Shown piece after piece: positions 41,022-49,083 of a DNA stretch of 64,000 nt. This DNA comes from an uncultured Anaerolineales bacterium (GTDB taxonomy: Bacteria; Chloroflexota; Anaerolineae; Anaerolineales; UBA11858), in NCBI GenBank assembly GCA_964457375.1, contig CAYWFK010000003.1, forward strand, positions 4,652-68,651, given 5' to 3'. The position numbers and the translations under genes were made by a program. The notes below the pieces were generated by a model. It had not been told where the DNA came from, ran no database searches, and worked only from the letters and a program-made list of their open reading frames with translations. Numbering within the stretch: position 1 is the stretch's first letter; every line of letters begins with the position of its first letter.

Positions 41022-44000
41022 TTATGCGGCGCGGCGTATACCGATTTTCAGAACCTTGCCGTCGATTTTTTGTTCTTCCTGATAGGCATCTTTGGGCGGT
41101 TCCTGTGCTTTGAGCATGGTCGTGAGCGTTTCCGCCTTGATGTAATCGCGCCATGATTCGATGACATCGATGATTTCTCCTTCGCCCTGATACCAGGTTT
41201 CGATGCGGTCTTCGATGTTGAAGTCTGCGTTCTTGCGCATGGATTGAATGCGCCTGACGATTTCACGTGCCAATCCTTCAGAACGCAATTCGGGGGTAAT
41301 GACCGAATCGATTGCTACGGTAACCAGTTTGTCCGAGACGACTGCCAAACCTTCCGCCGGCTGGGTGTTCACCAGGACTTCTTCGGGTGTCAGGGTGATT
41401 GCTTCGCCGTCCAGTTCGAGATCGATGTTTTCCCCGTTGGATACCTTGTGAGCGATTTCGGATGCATCGAGGGCGCTCAACGCTTTGCGCAGAGCGGGGA
41501 ATTTGGCACCGAATTTTGGCCCGAGGAGTTTGTTGTTGGGCAGGATTTGGTAGGAAACCAGATTTTCTGCATTATCGACGAATTCGAGTGATTTGATGTT
41601 CAGCTCGTCGGTGATGATTGCAATCAGTTCGTTGCTCAATTCCGCCTTGCCTTCCCGAACGTATGCAAAGACTTTTGCCAGCGGCTGGCGCACTTTGATT
41701 CCGGCGCTGCTGCGTGCACTCAGCCCCAGGCTGGCGATTCGCCGGGCAAGTGACATTTGCTCGACGAGGTCCGTATCGATAGCGTTCTCGTCCGCCAGCG
41801 GATATGTGGTGTGATGGATGCTCGCATAAGCCTGTGGATGAACATTGCGCACCAGGTTTTGGTACATTTCTTCGGTTACGAAAGGAATGAGCGGGGCAAG
41901 CGTTCTGCTCAGTTTTAACAGGACGTGATATAGCGTTGCGTAAGCGGTGTTCTTGTCGTCATCGTGTTCGCTCTTCCAAAACCGGCGGCGTGAACGGCGG
42001 ACGTACCAGTTGGTCAGGTCATCGATCATGCTTTCTGTTGTGATCGTCGCATTGAAAGCATCGGAGTTTTCCAGTGATTTGGTCACGCTTGCCACGACCT
42101 GGTTCAGGCGAGCAAGTATCCAGCGGTCGAGGGGATTGCTGCTTGCGGGAGTGTTCCCTTCCGGCACTTCGGGATCGAACGATGCGTTTTGAGGTTCCCA
42201 ATGATCCAGGCTGGCATATGTGGCGAAGAAGCTGTAAACATTCCATAAGGGGATGAGGAAGCGGCGTCGTGTTTCTTCTGCGCGCTGGAACCCGAAGAGC
42301 AAGTTGTTTTCCGGTTTGTGGGAACAATAGAGCCAGCGCATCACATCGACGCCCATTTTGTCTGCCGCTTCATTGAATTCGATGGCGTTCCCCCATGATT
42401 TGTGCATTTCACGGCCATCTTCTGCCATCAGGCTGGCATAACTGAAGTTTTGCAGGAAAGGCGGACTGTTGTCGATGACGGTTGCCATGGCAAGCAGGCT
42501 GTAAAACCAGTTGCGGAACTGTCCGGGGAAGGATTCGCTGATCCAGTGAGCCGGATACCATTTGCGCCAGAATTCAGGGTTTCGCCGGTATTGCAATGTG
42601 CTGAAAGGAACGATACCGGCATCCAGCCAGGGGTTGCCGACATCCGGAATGCGATTCATCGTACCCCCGCATTTTTCGCATTGAATTTTGACTGCATCGA
42701 TATATGGTCTGTGCGGGGTATGTCCGTCAAGTACGTCCAGCCCGGCGACAGCGCGTTCCTGCAATTCTGTTTCACTGCCGATGACGGTATGGTGTCCACA
42801 GTCTTCGCAGACCCAAATCGGCAGGGCAAGTCCCCAAAAGCGTTTCTTCGAGATCATCCAGTCGTGCATGTTCTTGAGCCAGTCCATTTCGCGGGAATAG
42901 CCGAATTCCGGAATCCAGCGGATTTGATCGACAACATCCATGATTTGGTAACGCAAACTGTGCTCTTTTTCTTCTTTGGTGAGTTCTTCGCGCGGCTTGT
43001 CGTAGGTTTCTCCCATGCTGATGAACCATTCATCGACCAGGCGGAAAACGAGTTCTGTCTTGCAGCGCCAGCAGGTGGGGTAGCGGTGGGTGTAAGGTTC
43101 GACATTGTAGAGAATGCCTTTTTTCTCGAGATTGGCAAAAATCTCATCGGCGACGGTCGAGACGTGCTTGCCGGTAACCCAGTCGAAACCATCGATGAAG
43201 TAGCCTTCGTCGTTGAGCGGTGCGATTAGCGGGAACCGATGCTCTTTGCCAAGCTGAAAGTCTTCAGCACCACAGCCGGGGGCGATATGCACGATGCCGG
43301 TGCCTTCGGTTTCGCCAACTTCGTCCCAAAGGATCACCTGATGGACGTCAACGGCGCTTTCATGAATATCTTTGATTAGCTGTTTGATGTGGGTGATTCC
43401 CCCGGGGCTTTGGGCGGCGGGTAATTCGTCGAAAGGTCCGTCATACGTCCAGCCTTCCATTTCCGACCCTTTGATTTCTCCGATTACTTGATAATCTCCG
43501 CGCAGCATGTGCAGGGTGCCCGTGGAAAGATAAACGATTTCATCCCCTTGTTTGACTTTGGCATAGGTGAGGTCCTTGCCAACGGCAGCGGCGACATTGC
43601 TGGTCAATGTCCAGGGTGTTGTTGTCCAGACAAGCAGGGATTCGTTTTTTCTGCCTCGCAGGGGGAAGCGCAGGGTAACACTGCGATGCGTGAGTTCTGC
43701 ATAACCATCCGTGACGATTTCGTGCTGGCTGATTCCAGTGGCGCACCGCGGGCACCATGGCATAACGTCTGCACCGTGGTAGAGCCAGCCTTTTTCCCAG
43801 GTTTTCTTGATGAAAGCCCAAATCATATAGTTGTTTTCATTGGAAAACGTGAAATAACTGCCTCCCAGTTCCGGTAAACCGAGATGACCAACGATTTGTT
43901 CGACCGTATCGGTAACGGGACCTTCAGGGCCTTCGATGGTGATGACTTGGGATGGGTCTTCCGCAAGCTTGTCTGCCAGCATGCGCAGCGTTTCCGGATC

Positions 44001-44438
44001 GTTCCAGTCCATCCAGTAGCCCAGGCGGATGGATTGACCTGTTTGGACAGCAGCGTAGCGCAGGACGCGTTCTTTGCATTTCAGAACGAATTTATCCAGG
44101 CCGTAGGATTCGATATCTTTCTTGGATTGAAAACCGAGTTGTTTTTCGACTTCCACTTCGACCCATAATCCCTGGCAGTCGAAACCGTTTTGATAGCGCA
44201 ATTCCCTGCCGCGCATCGTCCAGAAGCGGTTGAAGACGTCTTTGTAAGTTCTGCCCCAGCCGTGATGTACACCCATTGGATTGTTGGCAGTGATTGGCCC
44301 GTCGATGAAAGACCAGGGCGGTTGCCCTTTGTGAATGGCGCGTTGTTTTTCGAAGGCGTTTGTTTCTTTCCAAAACTTGAGAATTTCATGTTCTTTGGCG
44401 ATGAAATCGATTTTATTGGGTACTTGTTCGAATGGCAT
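41022..44438 (-). CDS. ileS: isoleucine--tRNA ligase (long, type-2-like)
   Basis: 1138 aa. HIGH-class motif as PMGVHHGWGR, KMSKS as EMHKSWGN, a CP1 editing region and Zn-ribbon cysteines (CPRC, CWRC, CEDCG, CEKCG). AGGAG RBS. Confidence 0.95.
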   Translation of the reverse strand: MPFEQVPNKIDFIAKEHEILKFWKETNAFEKQRAIHKGQPPWSFIDGPITANNPMGVHHGWGRTYKDVFNRFWTMRGRELRYQNGFDCQGLWVEVEVEKQLGFQSKKDIESYGLDKFVLKCKERVLRYAAVQTGQSIRLGYWMDWNDPETLRMLADKLAEDPSQVITIEGPEGPVTDTVEQIVGHLGLPELGGSYFTFSNENNYMIWAFIKKTWEKGWLYHGADVMPWCPRCATGISQHEIVTDGYAELTHRSVTLRFPLRGRKNESLLVWTTTPWTLTSNVAAAVGKDLTYAKVKQGDEIVYLSTGTLHMLRGDYQVIGEIKGSEMEGWTYDGPFDELPAAQSPGGITHIKQLIKDIHESAVDVHQVILWDEVGETEGTGIVHIAPGCGAEDFQLGKEHRFPLIAPLNDEGYFIDGFDWVTGKHVSTVADEIFANLEKKGILYNVEPYTHRYPTCWRCKTELVFRLVDEWFISMGETYDKPREELTKEEKEHSLRYQIMDVVDQIRWIPEFGYSREMDWLKNMHDWMISKKRFWGLALPIWVCEDCGHHTVIGSETELQERAVAGLDVLDGHTPHRPYIDAVKIQCEKCGGTMNRIPDVGNPWLDAGIVPFSTLQYRRNPEFWRKWYPAHWISESFPGQFRNWFYSLLAMATVIDNSPPFLQNFSYASLMAEDGREMHKSWGNAIEFNEAADKMGVDVMRWLYCSHKPENNLLFGFQRAEETRRRFLIPLWNVYSFFATYASLDHWEPQNASFDPEVPEGNTPASSNPLDRWILARLNQVVASVTKSLENSDAFNATITTESMIDDLTNWYVRRSRRRFWKSEHDDDKNTAYATLYHVLLKLSRTLAPLIPFVTEEMYQNLVRNVHPQAYASIHHTTYPLADENAIDTDLVEQMSLARRIASLGLSARSSAGIKVRQPLAKVFAYVREGKAELSNELIAIITDELNIKSLEFVDNAENLVSYQILPNNKLLGPKFGAKFPALRKALSALDASEIAHKVSNGENIDLELDGEAITLTPEEVLVNTQPAEGLAVVSDKLVTVAIDSVITPELRSEGLAREIVRRIQSMRKNADFNIEDRIETWYQGEGEIIDVIESWRDYIKAETLTTMLKAQEPPKDAYQEEQKIDGKVLKIGIRRAA

Positions 44439-44501: not shown

Positions 44502-44700
44502 AAAAAAACCCTTGTCCCGGTCAGGGACGAGAGTTTAACATTCCCGCGGTACCACCCCGATTCCCACTCAAGAGTGGGCAGCTTTTTCAGGTACGGCCGG
44601 TGCTGTTTGATGTTGATGCCGGTTTATACCTGCGTCGGTGATAACGGGCGACGATCCCGACTCACTTAATTTGCGGATGCATTTCAGATTGTGGCTCCGG
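44502..44700 (-). promoter_or_regulatory. T-box riboswitch leader with intrinsic terminator, upstream of ileS
   Basis: On the minus-strand RNA: Stem III-like hairpin CCCACUCUUGAGUGGG, then AAUCGGGGUGGUACCGCGGG (the T-box core GGUGGUACCGCG; plus-strand 44545-44559). A terminator follows: CUCUCGUCCC, UGACC loop, GGGACAAGGG, then U7 (44502-44533). AUC triplets lie at 44617-44615 and 44611-44609. Confidence 0.8.
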
Positions 44701-44955
44701 AAGGATTTTCCGCCTATGTGCCTGATCCGGCTTACACCAATGCCCGGACTCGCTGTCAGACAACCAGGGGCGTACTCGTTTCCATCATTGCCTTTGTGTA
44801 TTTCTCTTGTCAAGCGGGATTAAACCACAAACGATGGCTTAGGTCAACCGGTGCCGGGCTTTTTGCGAGCAATCGGCGGTGCAGCGGGTCTTTGCCTGCT
44901 GATAATCCGCAAAATGTTCTTCGGCAACCGGTTGTTTCATACAAGGGCAGCATGC

Positions 44956-44964
44956 GTGGTATAA
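44956..44964 (+). promoter_or_regulatory. candidate extended -10 element (TGGTATAAT) for the dtxR-feo operon
   Basis: TGgTATAAT lies 36 nt upstream of ATG 45000. There is no good -35 hexamer. Sequence match only. Confidence 0.35.
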
Positions 44965-44999
44965 TCCTAATAATGAAATTAGGAGAGACTAAAAATAAG

Positions 45000-45686
45000 A
45001 TGATACAAACCAAGTTGTCGGATGCGGTTGAGGATTATCTCAAAACCATTTACGATCTCAGCCAGACGTATGGCAAAGCTACGACGAATAAAATCGCGGA
45101 GGTTTTGGAGGTTAAGCCCGCTTCTGTTTCCGGGATGATCAAACGGCTGGCGCATTTTTCACCGGCGCTTGTTACTTATCAGAAAAGCCGTGGTGTGATG
45201 CTGACCCCGGAAGGAAACCGAATTGCACTGGAAATCATCCGCCATCATCGTCTGGTCGAATTGTTTTTGAAAGAAACTTTGGGGCTATCCTGGGATGAAG
45301 TGGACAGGGAAGCGGACAAACTCGAGCATGTCATCTCTCCAAAGATTGCCGATCGTATTGCGCAGGTGCTTGGTGACCCGGTGACAGACCCGCATGGTGA
45401 TCCGATTCCGACACGGGATTTACGCATGCCGGAGCAGGGGTTTGTTCGTCTTGACCGGCTCAGGCCACGACTGCATGTCATTATCCGCCGGGTACGGGAT
45501 ACTCATCCGGAATTGCTGCGTTACCTGGCAGAAAAGGGGGTCGTTCTCGACAAGCGTTTTCTCCTCGCTGAATATTCGGGCCTGGACGGCAATCTTACTC
45601 TGATGCGGGAAGACAGTGAAGCGGCTGTTGTGCTGGGGCCCGGAATTACCAGCCAGATTTTCGTCGAAATTCAGGCTGCGAAATGA
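45000..45686 (+). CDS. DtxR/IdeR/MntR-family metal-dependent transcriptional regulator with a C-terminal SH3/FeoA-like domain
   Basis: Start moved to ATG 45000. LSDAVEDYLKTIYDLSQ...ATTNKIAEVLEVKPASVSGMIKRL is the wHTH. RHHRLVELFL...DPHGDPIP is the metal-site/dimerisation region. The C-terminal domain is about 70 aa. Confidence 0.88.
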   Translation: MIQTKLSDAVEDYLKTIYDLSQTYGKATTNKIAEVLEVKPASVSGMIKRLAHFSPALVTYQKSRGVMLTPEGNRIALEIIRHHRLVELFLKETLGLSWDEVDREADKLEHVISPKIADRIAQVLGDPVTDPHGDPIPTRDLRMPEQGFVRLDRLRPRLHVIIRRVRDTHPELLRYLAEKGVVLDKRFLLAEYSGLDGNLTLMREDSEAAVVLGPGITSQIFVEIQAAK

Positions 45687-45731: not shown

Positions 45732-46808
45732 ATGTCTAATCCGGGTACTGCATTGGCGATTGGAACCGTGATCATGGCTTTGCTGGCGGTTCTTTTTTTT
45801 CCGGAAAGGGGTTTGTTTTTCAGATGGCAGCGTGCCCGATTTCTGGGTGAGCGGGCCTTGATCGAAGATGCGTTGAAACATATTTATCTCTTCGAGCAGG
45901 AAGGAAACAAGGCTACCGTCGAATCTCTTTCGGGCGTGTTGAAAGTGACCCGGGAACGGGGTACAGGGATTTGTGACCGGCTGGAGAAACTTGGTTTGGT
46001 GGCCATCTCCGGCAGTCATTTTCATCTGACCGAAGACGGGCGGAAGTATGCACTCAGAATTATCCGGGCACATCGTTTGTGGGAACGGTATCTTGCGGAA
46101 GAAACGGGTTTCGAACCGGTGGAATGGCACGGACGCGCCGATTTGCGGGAACATTTGCTCACCGACGAAGATGTCGATACGTTAGCGGCTAAGCTCGGCA
46201 ACCCTTTGCATGATCCGCATGGAGACCCCATTCCTACGGCTTCGGGGGAAATTCGATCTCATGATGGCATTCCCCTGACTTCGCTGCCCGTAAACCAAAC
46301 AGCACGCATTGTTCATATGGAAGATGAACCCAAAACGGTTTATGCCCAGTTGGTGGCGGAGGGTTTGGAAATCGGGATGGATTTGCACCTGACGGAGTTT
46401 TCTCCCCAGCGGGTACGTTTTTGGGCGGGGGGTGAAGAACATTTACTTGCACCGGTTGTTGCGGCGAATATTACCGTTGTTCCGCTTGACGAAAAAAGGG
46501 CGGAAACTCAGGAGACGGGGCTGCCGTTGACCTCTCTCGGACTTGGGGAGACAGGGGAAGTTTTATCCATTTCAACCAAAATCCGGGGAGCCGAACGACG
46601 GCGACTGATGGATTTGGGAATTTTGCCCGGTACGCAGATTACCGCCGAGATGAGAAGCCCGGGCGGAGACCCGACGGCTTACCGAATCCGGGGGGCGCTG
46701 ATTGCCCTGCGTAGTGAGCAGGCGGGCAAGATTAGAATCCGGAAACTTGCCGGAAGAGGTGAAAATGCCGCAGCGCCGATTGATGCAGAGGAAGGGAGTA
46801 AAGCATGA
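45732..46808 (+). CDS. membrane-anchored DtxR-like protein fused to two FeoA/SH3-like domains
   Basis: 358 aa. N-terminal hydrophobic helix ALAIGTVIMALLAVLFF, then a DtxR-like wHTH plus RAHRLWERYL...DPHGDPIP. Two FeoA-like modules follow (LTSLPVNQTARIVHMED... and LTSLGLGETGEVLSIS...). The stop overlaps the next start in ATGA. Confidence 0.8.
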   Translation: MSNPGTALAIGTVIMALLAVLFFPERGLFFRWQRARFLGERALIEDALKHIYLFEQEGNKATVESLSGVLKVTRERGTGICDRLEKLGLVAISGSHFHLTEDGRKYALRIIRAHRLWERYLAEETGFEPVEWHGRADLREHLLTDEDVDTLAAKLGNPLHDPHGDPIPTASGEIRSHDGIPLTSLPVNQTARIVHMEDEPKTVYAQLVAEGLEIGMDLHLTEFSPQRVRFWAGGEEHLLAPVVAANITVVPLDEKRAETQETGLPLTSLGLGETGEVLSISTKIRGAERRRLMDLGILPGTQITAEMRSPGGDPTAYRIRGALIALRSEQAGKIRIRKLAGRGENAAAPIDAEEGSKA

Positions 46809-47647
46809 GTGACCAACAACAATCCGTGATGCCGCCTGCATGCGCGACTTGTGCCGTTCATCATTTGGCAAACCTGAAAAAATTGGGCGTGGATATGGAA
46901 GACTGGGATTTTGTCGTTGCTCTGGCGGGAAATCCCAATGTCGGGAAGAGCACGGTTTTCAATGCACTGACCGGGCTGCACCAGCATACGGGAAACTGGC
47001 CCGGAAAAACGGTAACACGTGCGGAGGGCGGTTACGAGTATGCGGCGTATCGATACAAGATTGTCGATTTGCCGGGAACCTATTCTTTGCTGGCTACCAG
47101 CCTGGATGAAGAAGTAGCCAGGGATTTCATCCTGTTCGGTCAGCCTGATGTTACTGTGGTCGTCGTGGATGCTTCGCGTCTGGAGAGAAACCTGAACCTC
47201 GCTTTGCAGGTGCTGGAGATTACCAGCCGAGTGGTGATTTGTTTGAATCTTGTCGATGAGGCGTCCCGCCATGGGATTGTCGTCGACGAGAGACGGCTCG
47301 CGCGGGATTTGGGTGTGCCGGTCGTTCCCACAGTAGCCCGTTTCGGGAAAGGAATCGATGAGCTGCTTGGGGCGATTCATGAAGTAGCCACGGGCAAGGT
47401 GACGGGGAAGCGATACCGTATCCGGCAGATTCCGGAACATTTGCAGGAAGCAGTGGACCAGCTGACAACCGAAATCAACCTGCTCTATCCGGGGCTGCCC
47501 AATGCCCGGTGGGTGGCGCTGCGTTTGCTGGACGGGGACGAACGCATTGCTGCTTCTATCCGGAATGGTGAGCTGGGAGACCTCAGCCGCGGTTCGGGTG
47601 AGGATAGTGAAACCGACCTGGAAGCCAGAATGGAGGCAGAGGAATGA
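46805..47647 (+). CDS. feoB: ferrous iron transporter FeoB, N-terminal soluble part (G-domain plus helical domain) as a separate ORF
   Basis: G1 [10 protein letters not shown]3 DLPG and G4 NLVD motifs. GGAAGGGAG RBS before ATG 46805. ATG 46895 ([15 protein letters not shown]) is an alternative start. Confidence 0.85.
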
Positions 47648-49083
47648 AAGACCATAGGGAAATCACACCGGAAACCTTGCTGAAAGAGGCGGAAGACTTG
47701 CGGTGGAAAATCGGCGGGGATTTTCACGAAAAGTTGATGGAAACGATTTATGCTGACGCTTCGCGGATTGCCTCACGTGCGGTAACAAGGCCGGGCGAGA
47801 AAGCACGTTTTGATTTGGACCGAGCCATCGACCGGGTGGTAACAAGCAGAATTTGGGGATTCCCGATTATGATTTTGTTGTTTACGCTGGTTTTCTGGCT
47901 GACAATCAGCGGGGCAAACTACCCTTCGGAATGGCTTTCCAGGCTGCTGTTGGATGCCGGACGCCCGTTTTTGAAAGGGCTGGCTGCGAGCGCCGGTTTC
48001 CCCTGGTGGCTGGACGGTTTGTTGATTGATGGTATGTATCTGGCGACAGCGTGGGTGGTGAGTGTGATGCTGCCGCCGATGGCAATTTTCTTTCCGTTGT
48101 TTACTTTGCTGGAAGATTTCGGATATCTGCCGCGCCTGGCTTTCAATTTCGACCACATTTTCAAAAAGGCGGGCGCCCACGGCAAGCAGGCGCTGAGCAT
48201 GATGATGGGCTTCGGATGCAATGCAGCAGGGATGATTGCTACCCGTATCATCGACAGCCCGCGCGAACGGTTGATTGCTATGATCACGAATAATTTTGCT
48301 TTGTGCAACGGCCGCTGGCCTACTCAAATTTTGATTGCTACCTTGTTCATCGGTGCATTGGTGCCGGCACATCTTGCGGGGATGATTTCCGCACTGGCTG
48401 TGGTCGGTATCGCGGTGTTGGGCGTGCTGCTCACCTTTGTGGTGAGCTGGGGGCTTTCACGAACCGTGCTGAAAGGCGAGGTTTCGACGTTCAGCCTGGA
48501 ATTGCCGCCGTACCGTCCCCCGCGTATTTTGCAAACGCTCTACACTTCCCTGATAGACCGGACGATTTATGTCTTGTGGCGGGCAATTGTTTTTGCTGCG
48601 CCGGCGGGTGCCGCGATTTGGTTGAGCGCAAATATCCGTGTAAGCGGTGTGAGTATTGCTGAGCATCTCGTTCATTTGCTTGACCCTGTGGGGTTGTTGA
48701 TTGGTTTGAACGGGGTCATCTTGCTGGCGTATGTTGTTGCCATTCCGGCAAACGAAATTGTCATTCCAACGGTGCTGATGCTGACGGTATTGGTCACCGG
48801 CGTCAATGCCGGTGGAGCCGGCAGCGGGGTAATCTTCGAAACGCAGTCGAACGCCGAAATGATGGCTTTGTTTCGTGCGGGGGGCTGGACGCTTTTGACC
48901 GCAGTCAATTTGATGCTGTTTAGCTTGATTCATAATCCTTGCAGCACAACGATTTATACGATGTACAAGGAATCCGGTAGTTTGAAGTGGACTTTGGTCG
49001 GCGCGCTGCTCCCGCTGGCAATGGGTTTCGTTGTCACCTTTTTCGTCGCCCAGATTTGGCGGCTGGTTGTCATGATGCTGTAA
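47644..49083 (+). CDS. feoB: ferrous iron transporter FeoB, membrane (Gate/nucleoside-recognition) part as a separate ORF
   Basis: 479 aa, polytopic. Resembles the FeoB region that follows the G-domain ([23 protein letters not shown]...) and the core/C-terminal Gate motifs. The start overlaps the previous stop (ATGA), with GGAGG 7 nt upstream. Confidence 0.85.

Follow-up and report, generated by a model that had tools for sequence, protein, structure and literature searches.

FeoA is a small SH3-like partner of FeoB. FeoC of Gammaproteobacteria, likewise small, has a winged-helix fold and binds the FeoB N-terminal domain. In nature FeoA and FeoB also occur fused, as in FeoAB of Bacteroides fragilis, which indicates that a physical linkage of FeoA to the transporter is recurrent (PMC8980893). 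FeoA domains also occur in PgMntR (PG1044) of Porphyromonas gingivalis, a soluble DNA-binding DtxR protein with twin C-terminal FeoA domains, whose gene shares an operon with a Mn transporter called FB2 and which binds Mn2+ very tightly, its overall Kd (dissociation constant) being 2 x 10^-11 M (PMC4805248). Here we analyse a locus in a 64,000-nucleotide stretch of contig CAYWFK010000003.1 from an uncultured Anaerolineales bacterium (hereafter the window), which encodes a 358-amino-acid protein with a predicted N-terminal membrane anchor, a DtxR-type core and two FeoA/SH3 modules, directly upstream of a FeoB that is split into two genes.

Sequence comparison and structural modelling lead us to regard it as moderately probable that this protein, below called the anchored protein, derives from a DtxR-family metal sensor and now serves as a non-DNA-binding, membrane-anchored FeoA-type subunit of a split FeoB importer. 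Its architecture, topology signals, conservation, synteny, the lack of another FeoA, the retention of metal ligands, the loss of the helix-turn-helix (HTH) signature and the enrichment of an operator were all computed directly. PgMntR is the closest characterised protein: both combine a DtxR core with two FeoA domains, both have a FeoB-type transporter gene alongside (FB2 is presumably FeoB2), and their ligands match. The anchored protein differs in a 29-residue N-terminal extension that forms the anchor (PgMntR has no N-terminal helix), in a degenerate, acidic recognition helix and wing where PgMntR binds promoter DNA, in Asp/Glu at the position of C108, and in a partner FeoB that comes in two pieces. 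A first-pass annotation, which had proposed an iron-sensing FeoA recruited from DtxR, knew of no characterised example. This stands only in part: a twin-FeoA DtxR has been characterised in PgMntR, but we found no description of the anchored, degenerate-HTH form with a split FeoB, nor any account of a split FeoB or of a membrane-anchored DtxR/FeoA protein, in open-access papers and preprints.

The dtxR-feo operon and its distribution

The operon comprises the following genes.

45732-46808, + strand: membrane-anchored DtxR-like protein with two FeoA/SH3 modules, 358 amino acids, ATG start
45000-45686, + strand: conventional soluble DtxR/MntR-family repressor, 228 amino acids (Fe_dep_repress 61.5 bits, Fe_dep_repr_C 100.8, FeoA 35)
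46805-47647, + strand: FeoB-N, soluble G-domain subunit of the split FeoB, 280 amino acids (PF02421, E 1e-60)
47644-49083, + strand: FeoB-C, membrane permease subunit of the split FeoB, 479 amino acids (Pfam Gate and FeoB_C; TIGR00437 profile positions 228-594)

The anchored-protein gene starts 45 nucleotides after the end of the soluble dtxR gene, with a GGAGG Shine-Dalgarno sequence 7 nucleotides 5' of its ATG. Its TGA (46806-46808) overlaps the feoB-N ATG at 46805 as ATGA, and feoB-N and feoB-C are joined by an ATGA overlap as well. This agrees with the layout given in the first-pass annotation, whose 45-nucleotide gap, ATGA overlap and split feoB are all in place, as are the motifs it quoted (RAHRLWERYL and DPHGDPIP in the anchored protein, RHHRLVELFL and DPHGDPIP in the paralogue). 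An identical gene product (P0001) is already present in NCBI. All three Pfam domains of the soluble DtxR score above threshold, and this protein is the probable transcriptional regulator of the operon.

A word-indexed search for homologues returned more than 7,700 hits. The best 120 are 340-368 amino acids long, share the Pfam pair of the query and 54-69% of its residues, and stem mainly from metagenome-assembled genomes (MAGs) of Anaerolineae/Chloroflexota. When 50%-identity cluster representatives were searched exhaustively with HMMER, 393 clusters resulted at E <= 1e-30, of which the best 150 were inspected for the helix. A family-specific peptide pattern, run against a single genome for each GTDB species, matched at least 251 genomes; the locus analyses are based on the best 80, which belong almost wholly to Anaerolineales, Caldilineales, Ardenticatenaceae or Promineifilaceae. 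A second clade, with sequences named Ignavibacterium/Ignavibacteria, was reached via a divergent low-GC member. The survey of architecture and neighbourhood that had been suggested for this protein thus finds the module conserved in Chloroflexota (Anaerolineae) and in Ignavibacteria. The open reading frame (ORF) is genuine: an artefactual fusion of separate dtxR and feoA genes, a concern raised in the first-pass annotation, is ruled out by full-length homologues in hundreds of independent assemblies, among them the at least 251 species genomes.

A complete module (soluble DtxR, anchored protein and split FeoB) also sits on a 544-kb contig of an Acidobacteriota-labelled MAG (L049, JBFMEW010000002.1), reflecting either horizontal transfer or a mislabelled bin. 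In databases, family members are labelled 'DtxR family Mn-dependent transcriptional regulator' or 'FeoA domain-containing protein'; the 'Mn-dependent transcriptional regulator' label is probably wrong.

Domain architecture and fold

The anchored protein is divided as follows.

45741-45800, + strand: N-terminal transmembrane anchor, amino acids 4-23, predicted N-out/C-in (AlphaFold2 (AF2) helix 4-22, predicted local distance difference test (pLDDT) ~90-97)
45801-45863, + strand: kink (P24, G27) followed by a W/R-rich juxtamembrane helix, amino acids 28-44 (conservation; AF2)
45864-46028, + strand: winged-helix domain, amino acids 45-99 (fold retained, DNA-contact signature gone)
46029-46241, + strand: metal-binding/dimerisation domain, amino acids 100-170 (PF02742, E 3e-23)
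46269-46499, + strand: first SH3-like module, DtxR domain 3 (weak FeoA match; AF2 beta domain with pLDDT >90)
46515-46745, + strand: second, FeoA-like module, amino acids 262-338 (PF04023, 81.5 bits)

A Pfam scan and hydropathy analysis detected each of the four parts described earlier, namely the helix, the DtxR core and the two SH3/FeoA modules. Run with the profiles that had been proposed for it, the Pfam scan placed Fe_dep_repr_C (PF02742) at amino acids 100-169 with 82 bits against a 27-bit cut-off and the FeoA domain (PF04023) at amino acids 265-337 with 81.5 bits against a 23-bit gathering cut-off, both strong matches; Fe_dep_repress (PF01325), at amino acids 44-92, reached only 14-17 bits and stayed below its 26-bit cut-off. 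The NCBIfam MntR profile aligns to amino acids 45-251.

The AF2 model, built from a 56-sequence alignment, has a pLDDT of 90.7. In it the W/R-rich juxtamembrane segment and DtxR helix 1 form one unbroken helix (28-56), and the winged helix-turn-helix (wHTH) consists of helices 45-56, 63-70 and 74-86 and wing strands 90-99 (pLDDT ~95). P24, G27, R31 and W32 are invariant or nearly so, and helix 1 carries the invariant E45-D46-A-L-K-H50, which includes the ligand D46. In a Foldseek comparison the core comes closest to Mn-dependent repressors, namely MntR of M. tuberculosis (5zr6; TM-score to target 0.85-0.89) and DR2539 of D. radiodurans (8pvt; root-mean-square deviation (rmsd) 1.4 Å), with an overall range for the two of 0.85-0.92 in TM-score to target and 1.4-2.4 Å in rmsd.

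The first SH3-like module (SH3-1) gives a FeoA match at amino acids ~188-258 with E 2e-3 when scanned alone, and holds an invariant H195-x-E197-D198-E199-P200. The second module bears the motif R-G-x-E-R-R-R-L-M-D-L-G-I-L-P-G and, in a search of PDB sequences, matches the stand-alone FeoA proteins 2k4y, 2k5f and 2k5l. Unlike these proteins of ~75-85 amino acids, it forms part of a 358-amino-acid membrane-anchored protein.

The N-terminal membrane anchor

The N-terminal segment scores as a membrane helix, as the first-pass annotation had claimed on hydrophobicity, and it is conserved and followed by positive-inside charges. The Kyte-Doolittle 19-mer maximum of the window protein is 2.37, and the 19-mer GTALAIGTVIMALLAVLFF has a Hessa sum of -1.8 kcal/mol. 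Among 77 genome-derived members the median Hessa sum is -2.7 and 92% lie at or below zero (<=0), versus a median of +11 in the soluble paralogues and none of 26 at or below zero. The window protein has no K or R ahead of the helix and four among the 15 residues behind it; the family means for K+R are 0.09 ahead and 3.8 in the 15 residues behind. These sequence signals predict an N-out/C-in topology with every domain in the cytoplasm, leaving about 4 residues outside the membrane and no periplasmic domain.

The hydrophobic helix is found in 119-120 of the best 120 Anaerolineae-type homologues and in 116 of 120 Ignavibacteria-type homologues. By a strict 19-mer criterion it is present in 110 of the best 150 cluster representatives, and several more have a shorter hydrophobic stretch. 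Two trivial explanations were considered. A mis-called start that leaves the helix untranslated is ruled out by P4, P24, G27, R31 and W32, which are conserved in two phyla, and by the GGAGG before the ATG. A cleavable signal peptide is unlikely, given the missing basic n-region, the charges behind the helix and the cytoplasmic-type domains that would then land outside the cell.

Some members (P0188, P0197 and P0220) lack a hydrophobic transmembrane helix and instead have a W/R-rich amphipathic start (e.g. MAIPSWWKRWWGFLRPG...) before the ED-x-LK helix, a composition that hints at peripheral membrane association as a substitute for the anchor.

A split FeoB and no separate FeoA

The order anchored gene, FeoB-N, FeoB-C recurs in nearly all of the 80 Chloroflexota loci that have a long enough contig. 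FeoB is split into separate ORFs in 69 of the 70 loci in which both halves could be traced, giving a G-domain protein of ~280 amino acids and a permease of ~475 amino acids, with the cut within the helical spacer domain; through their ATGA overlaps the genes of the window are coupled in translation. Three Ignavibacteria loci have the same module, and one of them (L081) adds a soluble DtxR directly upstream.

Neither tblastn nor a hidden Markov model of the family's FeoA modules revealed a free-standing feoA gene, either in the window or, over ~7 kb, at any of the 80 loci, and the only other FeoA-type domain at the window and these loci is the SH3 domain of the soluble paralogue. Because no other FeoA is present at the window or at the 80 loci, the anchored protein is, on this genomic evidence, the FeoA of these systems. 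The earlier proposal that it occupies the FeoA position thus gains support from an anchored gene directly 5' of feoB in nearly every long-enough locus. As in FeoA systems generally, a full-score FeoA module, here the sole one of its operon, is encoded immediately 5' of feoB; in comparison with FeoAB, the FeoA module is fused to a membrane-anchored metal-sensor core instead of to FeoB, and FeoB itself is split.

FeoB-N carries an extension of ~35 amino acids ahead of the P-loop (46805-46930, amino acids 1-41), with C13-x-x-C16-x-x-H19. The motif C-x-x-C-(P)-x-H is invariant and is followed by N-L-x-K-L-G-V-D-M-x-x-W-D; the extension occurs in all 72 loci and all 120 homologues inspected for it, as well as in Ignavibacteria (L082). 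We know of no canonical FeoB with such an N-terminal extension. AF2 models it at low confidence (pLDDT 31-54); the extension may bind a metal or an Fe-S cluster, or may serve for docking.

In ~25 of the 80 loci the anchored gene has the soluble DtxR paralogue as a neighbour. This adjacency, seen also in the window and in Ignavibacteria, and the DtxR dimerisation domain common to both proteins would suit an anti-repressor role, in which the anchored protein heterodimerises with the soluble paralogue and keeps it at the membrane. We consider such sequestration extremely improbable: most loci lack an adjacent paralogue, the two dimerisation domains are only ~35% identical, and the obligatory FeoA modules and the link to a split FeoB would be left unexplained.

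Degeneration of the DNA-binding surface

Canonical DtxR, IdeR and MntR are soluble proteins with at most one SH3 domain, and their conserved basic recognition helix reads TTAG-type operators. The anchored protein shares their three-domain fold, dimerisation domain and ligand positions; it has lost the recognition signature and gained an anchor and a FeoA module. The 25 loci that encode both an anchored and a soluble protein offer an internal control at matched phylogenetic depth. The canonical recognition helix of the soluble DtxR, V-K-P-A-S-V-S-G-M-I-K-R-L, is conserved among 26 paralogues, which retain V-[TAS]-P-A-S-V-T-[GN]-M-x-[KQR]-[RK]-L and the wing Y-[RK]-x-[RQ]-G-V. In the anchored proteins these positions are taken by T/L/V/R, D/N, E/D/R/Q, A, E, T/S/A and others, and the wing is acidic or glycine-rich. 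The Pro, Ser/Thr and Lys/Arg residues through which a canonical recognition helix makes its contacts are replaced, and the helix varies between species.

Charge and conservation differ likewise. The net charge of the wHTH is -3.5 ± 1.9 in the anchored proteins versus +1.5 ± 1.6 in the soluble paralogues, and PF01325 is listed in precomputed Pfam assignments for none of the 120 Anaerolineae-type and two of the 120 Ignavibacteria-type homologues. Mean column entropy in the anchored family is 0.90 for the dimerisation/metal domain, and the HTH (1.71) and the wing (1.98) are its most variable parts; for SH3-1 it is 1.06, versus 1.95 in the soluble paralogues. These alignments suggest that constraint has shifted from the HTH to SH3-1 in the anchored family. 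A soluble twin-FeoA cluster representative (P0237) still has a canonical helix, VKPASATGMVQRLAK, and presumably displays the ancestral state. Ordinary DtxR-like DNA binding had been named in the first-pass annotation as a result that would speak against its proposal; the surface found here, with its canonical helix and wing residues replaced, variable and acidic, is unlike that of an ordinary DtxR.

FeoC offers a parallel in that a winged helix belongs to a Feo system and is not known to act through DNA. This is an analogy only, as the winged helix here originates from DtxR domain 1, and a Pfam scan of the anchored protein (E up to 10) gave no FeoC match, although HMMER filters may hide very weak ones.

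The operator and a tethered repressor

Upstream of the soluble dtxR gene, the window contains two regulatory elements.

44936-44965, + strand: sigma-70-like promoter TTCATA-18-TATAAT with TG (consensus scan, 10 of 12 matches; a pattern match only)
44979-44992, + strand: DtxR/IdeR-type operator core TTAG-N6-CTAA (TTAGGAGAGACTAA), the single match in the 64-kb window

We take this core for the central part of the classical DtxR/IdeR box. It sits between the -10 hexamer and the soluble dtxR ATG and overlaps the Shine-Dalgarno sequence. Of 73 loci across the family, 31 have it at most 200 nucleotides (<=200 nt) upstream of the operon's first gene, where 0.004 per 200 nucleotides would be expected; it commonly reads AATTTAG-N6-CTAAAWT and at times comes in two adjacent copies. 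Being conserved, the operator suits the likewise conserved helix of the soluble paralogue and not the variable acidic helix of the anchored protein. An inverted-repeat search of the promoter region found none at the thresholds used, and a palindrome spotted by eye, CCTAAT-N6-ATTAGG, was dropped, as it is not conserved in related loci.

The first-pass annotation had also offered an alternative in which the protein is a membrane-tethered repressor. An anchored dimer would then bind the operator at the membrane, or after proteolytic release, and couple transport status to transcription. An intact and confidently modelled wHTH fold, an operator directly 5' of the anchored gene in many loci without an adjacent soluble dtxR, and the DNA binding of PgMntR, the closest characterised relative, are what this explanation can draw on. 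It has to contend with the replacement of the canonical helix contacts and the basic wing, a wHTH charge of -3.5, a PF01325 score under the cut-off, and a recognition helix that varies between species while the operator is conserved. The anchor is moreover joined ~20 residues before helix 1, on the N-terminal side, which in DtxR structures adjoins the DNA-binding face. In ToxR, CadC and TcpP the order is cytoplasmic DNA-binding domain, transmembrane helix and periplasmic sensor. The anchored protein resembles them in combining a DNA-binding-type domain with a single membrane helix; its helix is at the extreme N-terminus, its sensor is cytoplasmic, and a periplasmic sensor domain of the ToxR/CadC kind is missing. 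We therefore disfavour a tethered repressor as quite unlikely.

On the strand opposite to the dtxR-feo operon, a T-box leader (Rfam RF00230, 94.2 bits; 44520-44797, - strand) lies 5' of an isoleucyl-tRNA synthetase-like gene (41022-44438, - strand), and this unit runs divergently from the operon.

Retention of the metal ligands

The predicted ligands of PgMntR are D19, H85, E89, H104, C108, E111, H112, D132, H134 and H166 (PMC4805248). In the anchored family D46, H114, E118, H133, E140, H141, D161, H163 and H195 are invariant and position 137 is D or E, so that the ligand numbers equal those of PgMntR plus 29 (plus 27 for D19). D46 corresponds to DtxR Met10 and PgMntR Asp19, and D/E137 to DtxR Cys102. 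All ten positions of both DtxR-type sites are thus invariant or conservatively substituted across two phyla, and the set contains neither Met nor Cys, with Asp in place of Met10 and Asp/Glu in place of Cys102. Because of this lack of a Met or Cys ligand, because the nearest structures are Mn sensors and because PgMntR regulates the Mn-transporter gene FB2, Mn2+ is as plausible as Fe2+ for the sensed metal. The description 'iron-sensing' given in the first-pass annotation goes further than these data: both the ligand set and the closest solved structures resemble those of Mn sensors.

Conservation of these sites bears on two further explanations. The anchored protein might be a pure scaffold or assembly factor that only tethers FeoB-N to the permease, with structural metal sites and unregulated transport. 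The synteny, the anchor and the FeoA evidence would be explained equally well by a scaffold and by a regulatory subunit. Ten conserved ligand positions, however, exceed what is usually needed to stabilise a fold, and a scaffold would not need the whole sensor core, so that we regard this explanation as unlikely. Alternatively, the protein could act as a metal acceptor or chaperone at the permease exit, its DtxR-type sites taking incoming Fe2+ or Mn2+ and handing it on. Invariant metal sites that the anchor and the interfacial helix keep close to the membrane, the additional invariant H-x-E-D-E-P patch on SH3-1 and the invariant CxxCxxH on FeoB-N would accord with such a role. The very tight binding of Mn2+ by PgMntR (Kd 2 x 10^-11 M, PMC4805248) would argue against transfer, and the data do not separate transfer from sensing; we rate an acceptor role as very unlikely.

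Discussion

Returning to the reading that we favour, a FeoA-type subunit derived from a metal sensor, we propose an origin from a PgMntR-like DtxR with twin FeoA domains, which acquired an N-terminal anchor and ceased to bind DNA in a sequence-specific way. A single N-out/C-in helix would anchor the protein, and a W/R-rich interfacial helix would continue into DtxR helix 1 with Asp46. The cytoplasmic part would comprise the DtxR dimerisation domain, through which we infer a dimer, both metal sites and two SH3 modules, the second of which is predicted to be a bona fide FeoA. One or both FeoA modules would bind FeoB-N and hold the G-domain at the membrane beside the permease FeoB-C; we propose this tethering because the operon has no other FeoA and the G-domain of FeoB is a separate, soluble protein. 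Fe2+ or Mn2+ filling the DtxR sites may then shift the domain arrangement and tune transport, most likely by shutting it down. Such gating would constitute fast post-translational feedback, with transcription left to the conventional soluble DtxR at the TTAG-N6-CTAA operator.

Several observations weigh against this reading. With the wHTH fold kept in full and its helix 1 invariant, a degree of binding to DNA or another nucleic acid is possible. About 20 of the 150 cluster representatives, some of them fragments, have no clear transmembrane helix despite a degenerate HTH. The link to a split FeoB is not absolute: an Ardenticatenaceae MAG (L008, 8019-10292) has an unsplit FeoB beside a retained anchored gene, whether by true re-fusion, as an ancestral state or through an assembly error, and at another locus, L030, FeoB is missing from the vicinity. 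Roughly two thirds of all loci have no soluble dtxR next to the anchored gene, yet the operator precedes the anchored gene there, and autoregulation by the anchored protein is formally possible. Finally, the existence and direction of metal gating, like the identity of the metal, are things we infer and nothing more, and the metal sites could be structural only.

The locus without FeoB has a neighbourhood of its own. There (L030, 5489-10957) the anchored gene lies between two genes for peptide deformylase, a metal-dependent enzyme, and upstream of a ZIP-family metal transporter gene.

More tentatively, and with somewhat less than even confidence, we suggest that this family represents the first DtxR-family repressor made into a transporter subunit. 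An anchored dimer would join FeoA function, and perhaps a FeoC-like wHTH function, to a cytosolic Fe2+/Mn2+ sensor, assemble FeoB-N on the permease and stop import when its sites fill, possibly together with the CxxCxxH of FeoB-N.

What FeoA (and FeoC) do for FeoB, and how Feo import is rapidly shut off at metal sufficiency, are long-standing questions. The module described here distributes the G-domain, the permease and the FeoA function over three polypeptides and ties FeoA to a well-understood sensor core at the membrane. This separation makes both the idea of FeoA as a G-domain tether and that of allosteric metal feedback directly testable with simple constructs, and a soluble twin-FeoA DtxR with a canonical HTH still exists for comparison with the ancestral state. 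Anaerolineae and Ignavibacteria, in which the module is widespread, are common in anoxic, iron-rich habitats. If our reading is true, the family would be a clear case of a transcription factor that has become a non-DNA-binding regulatory subunit.

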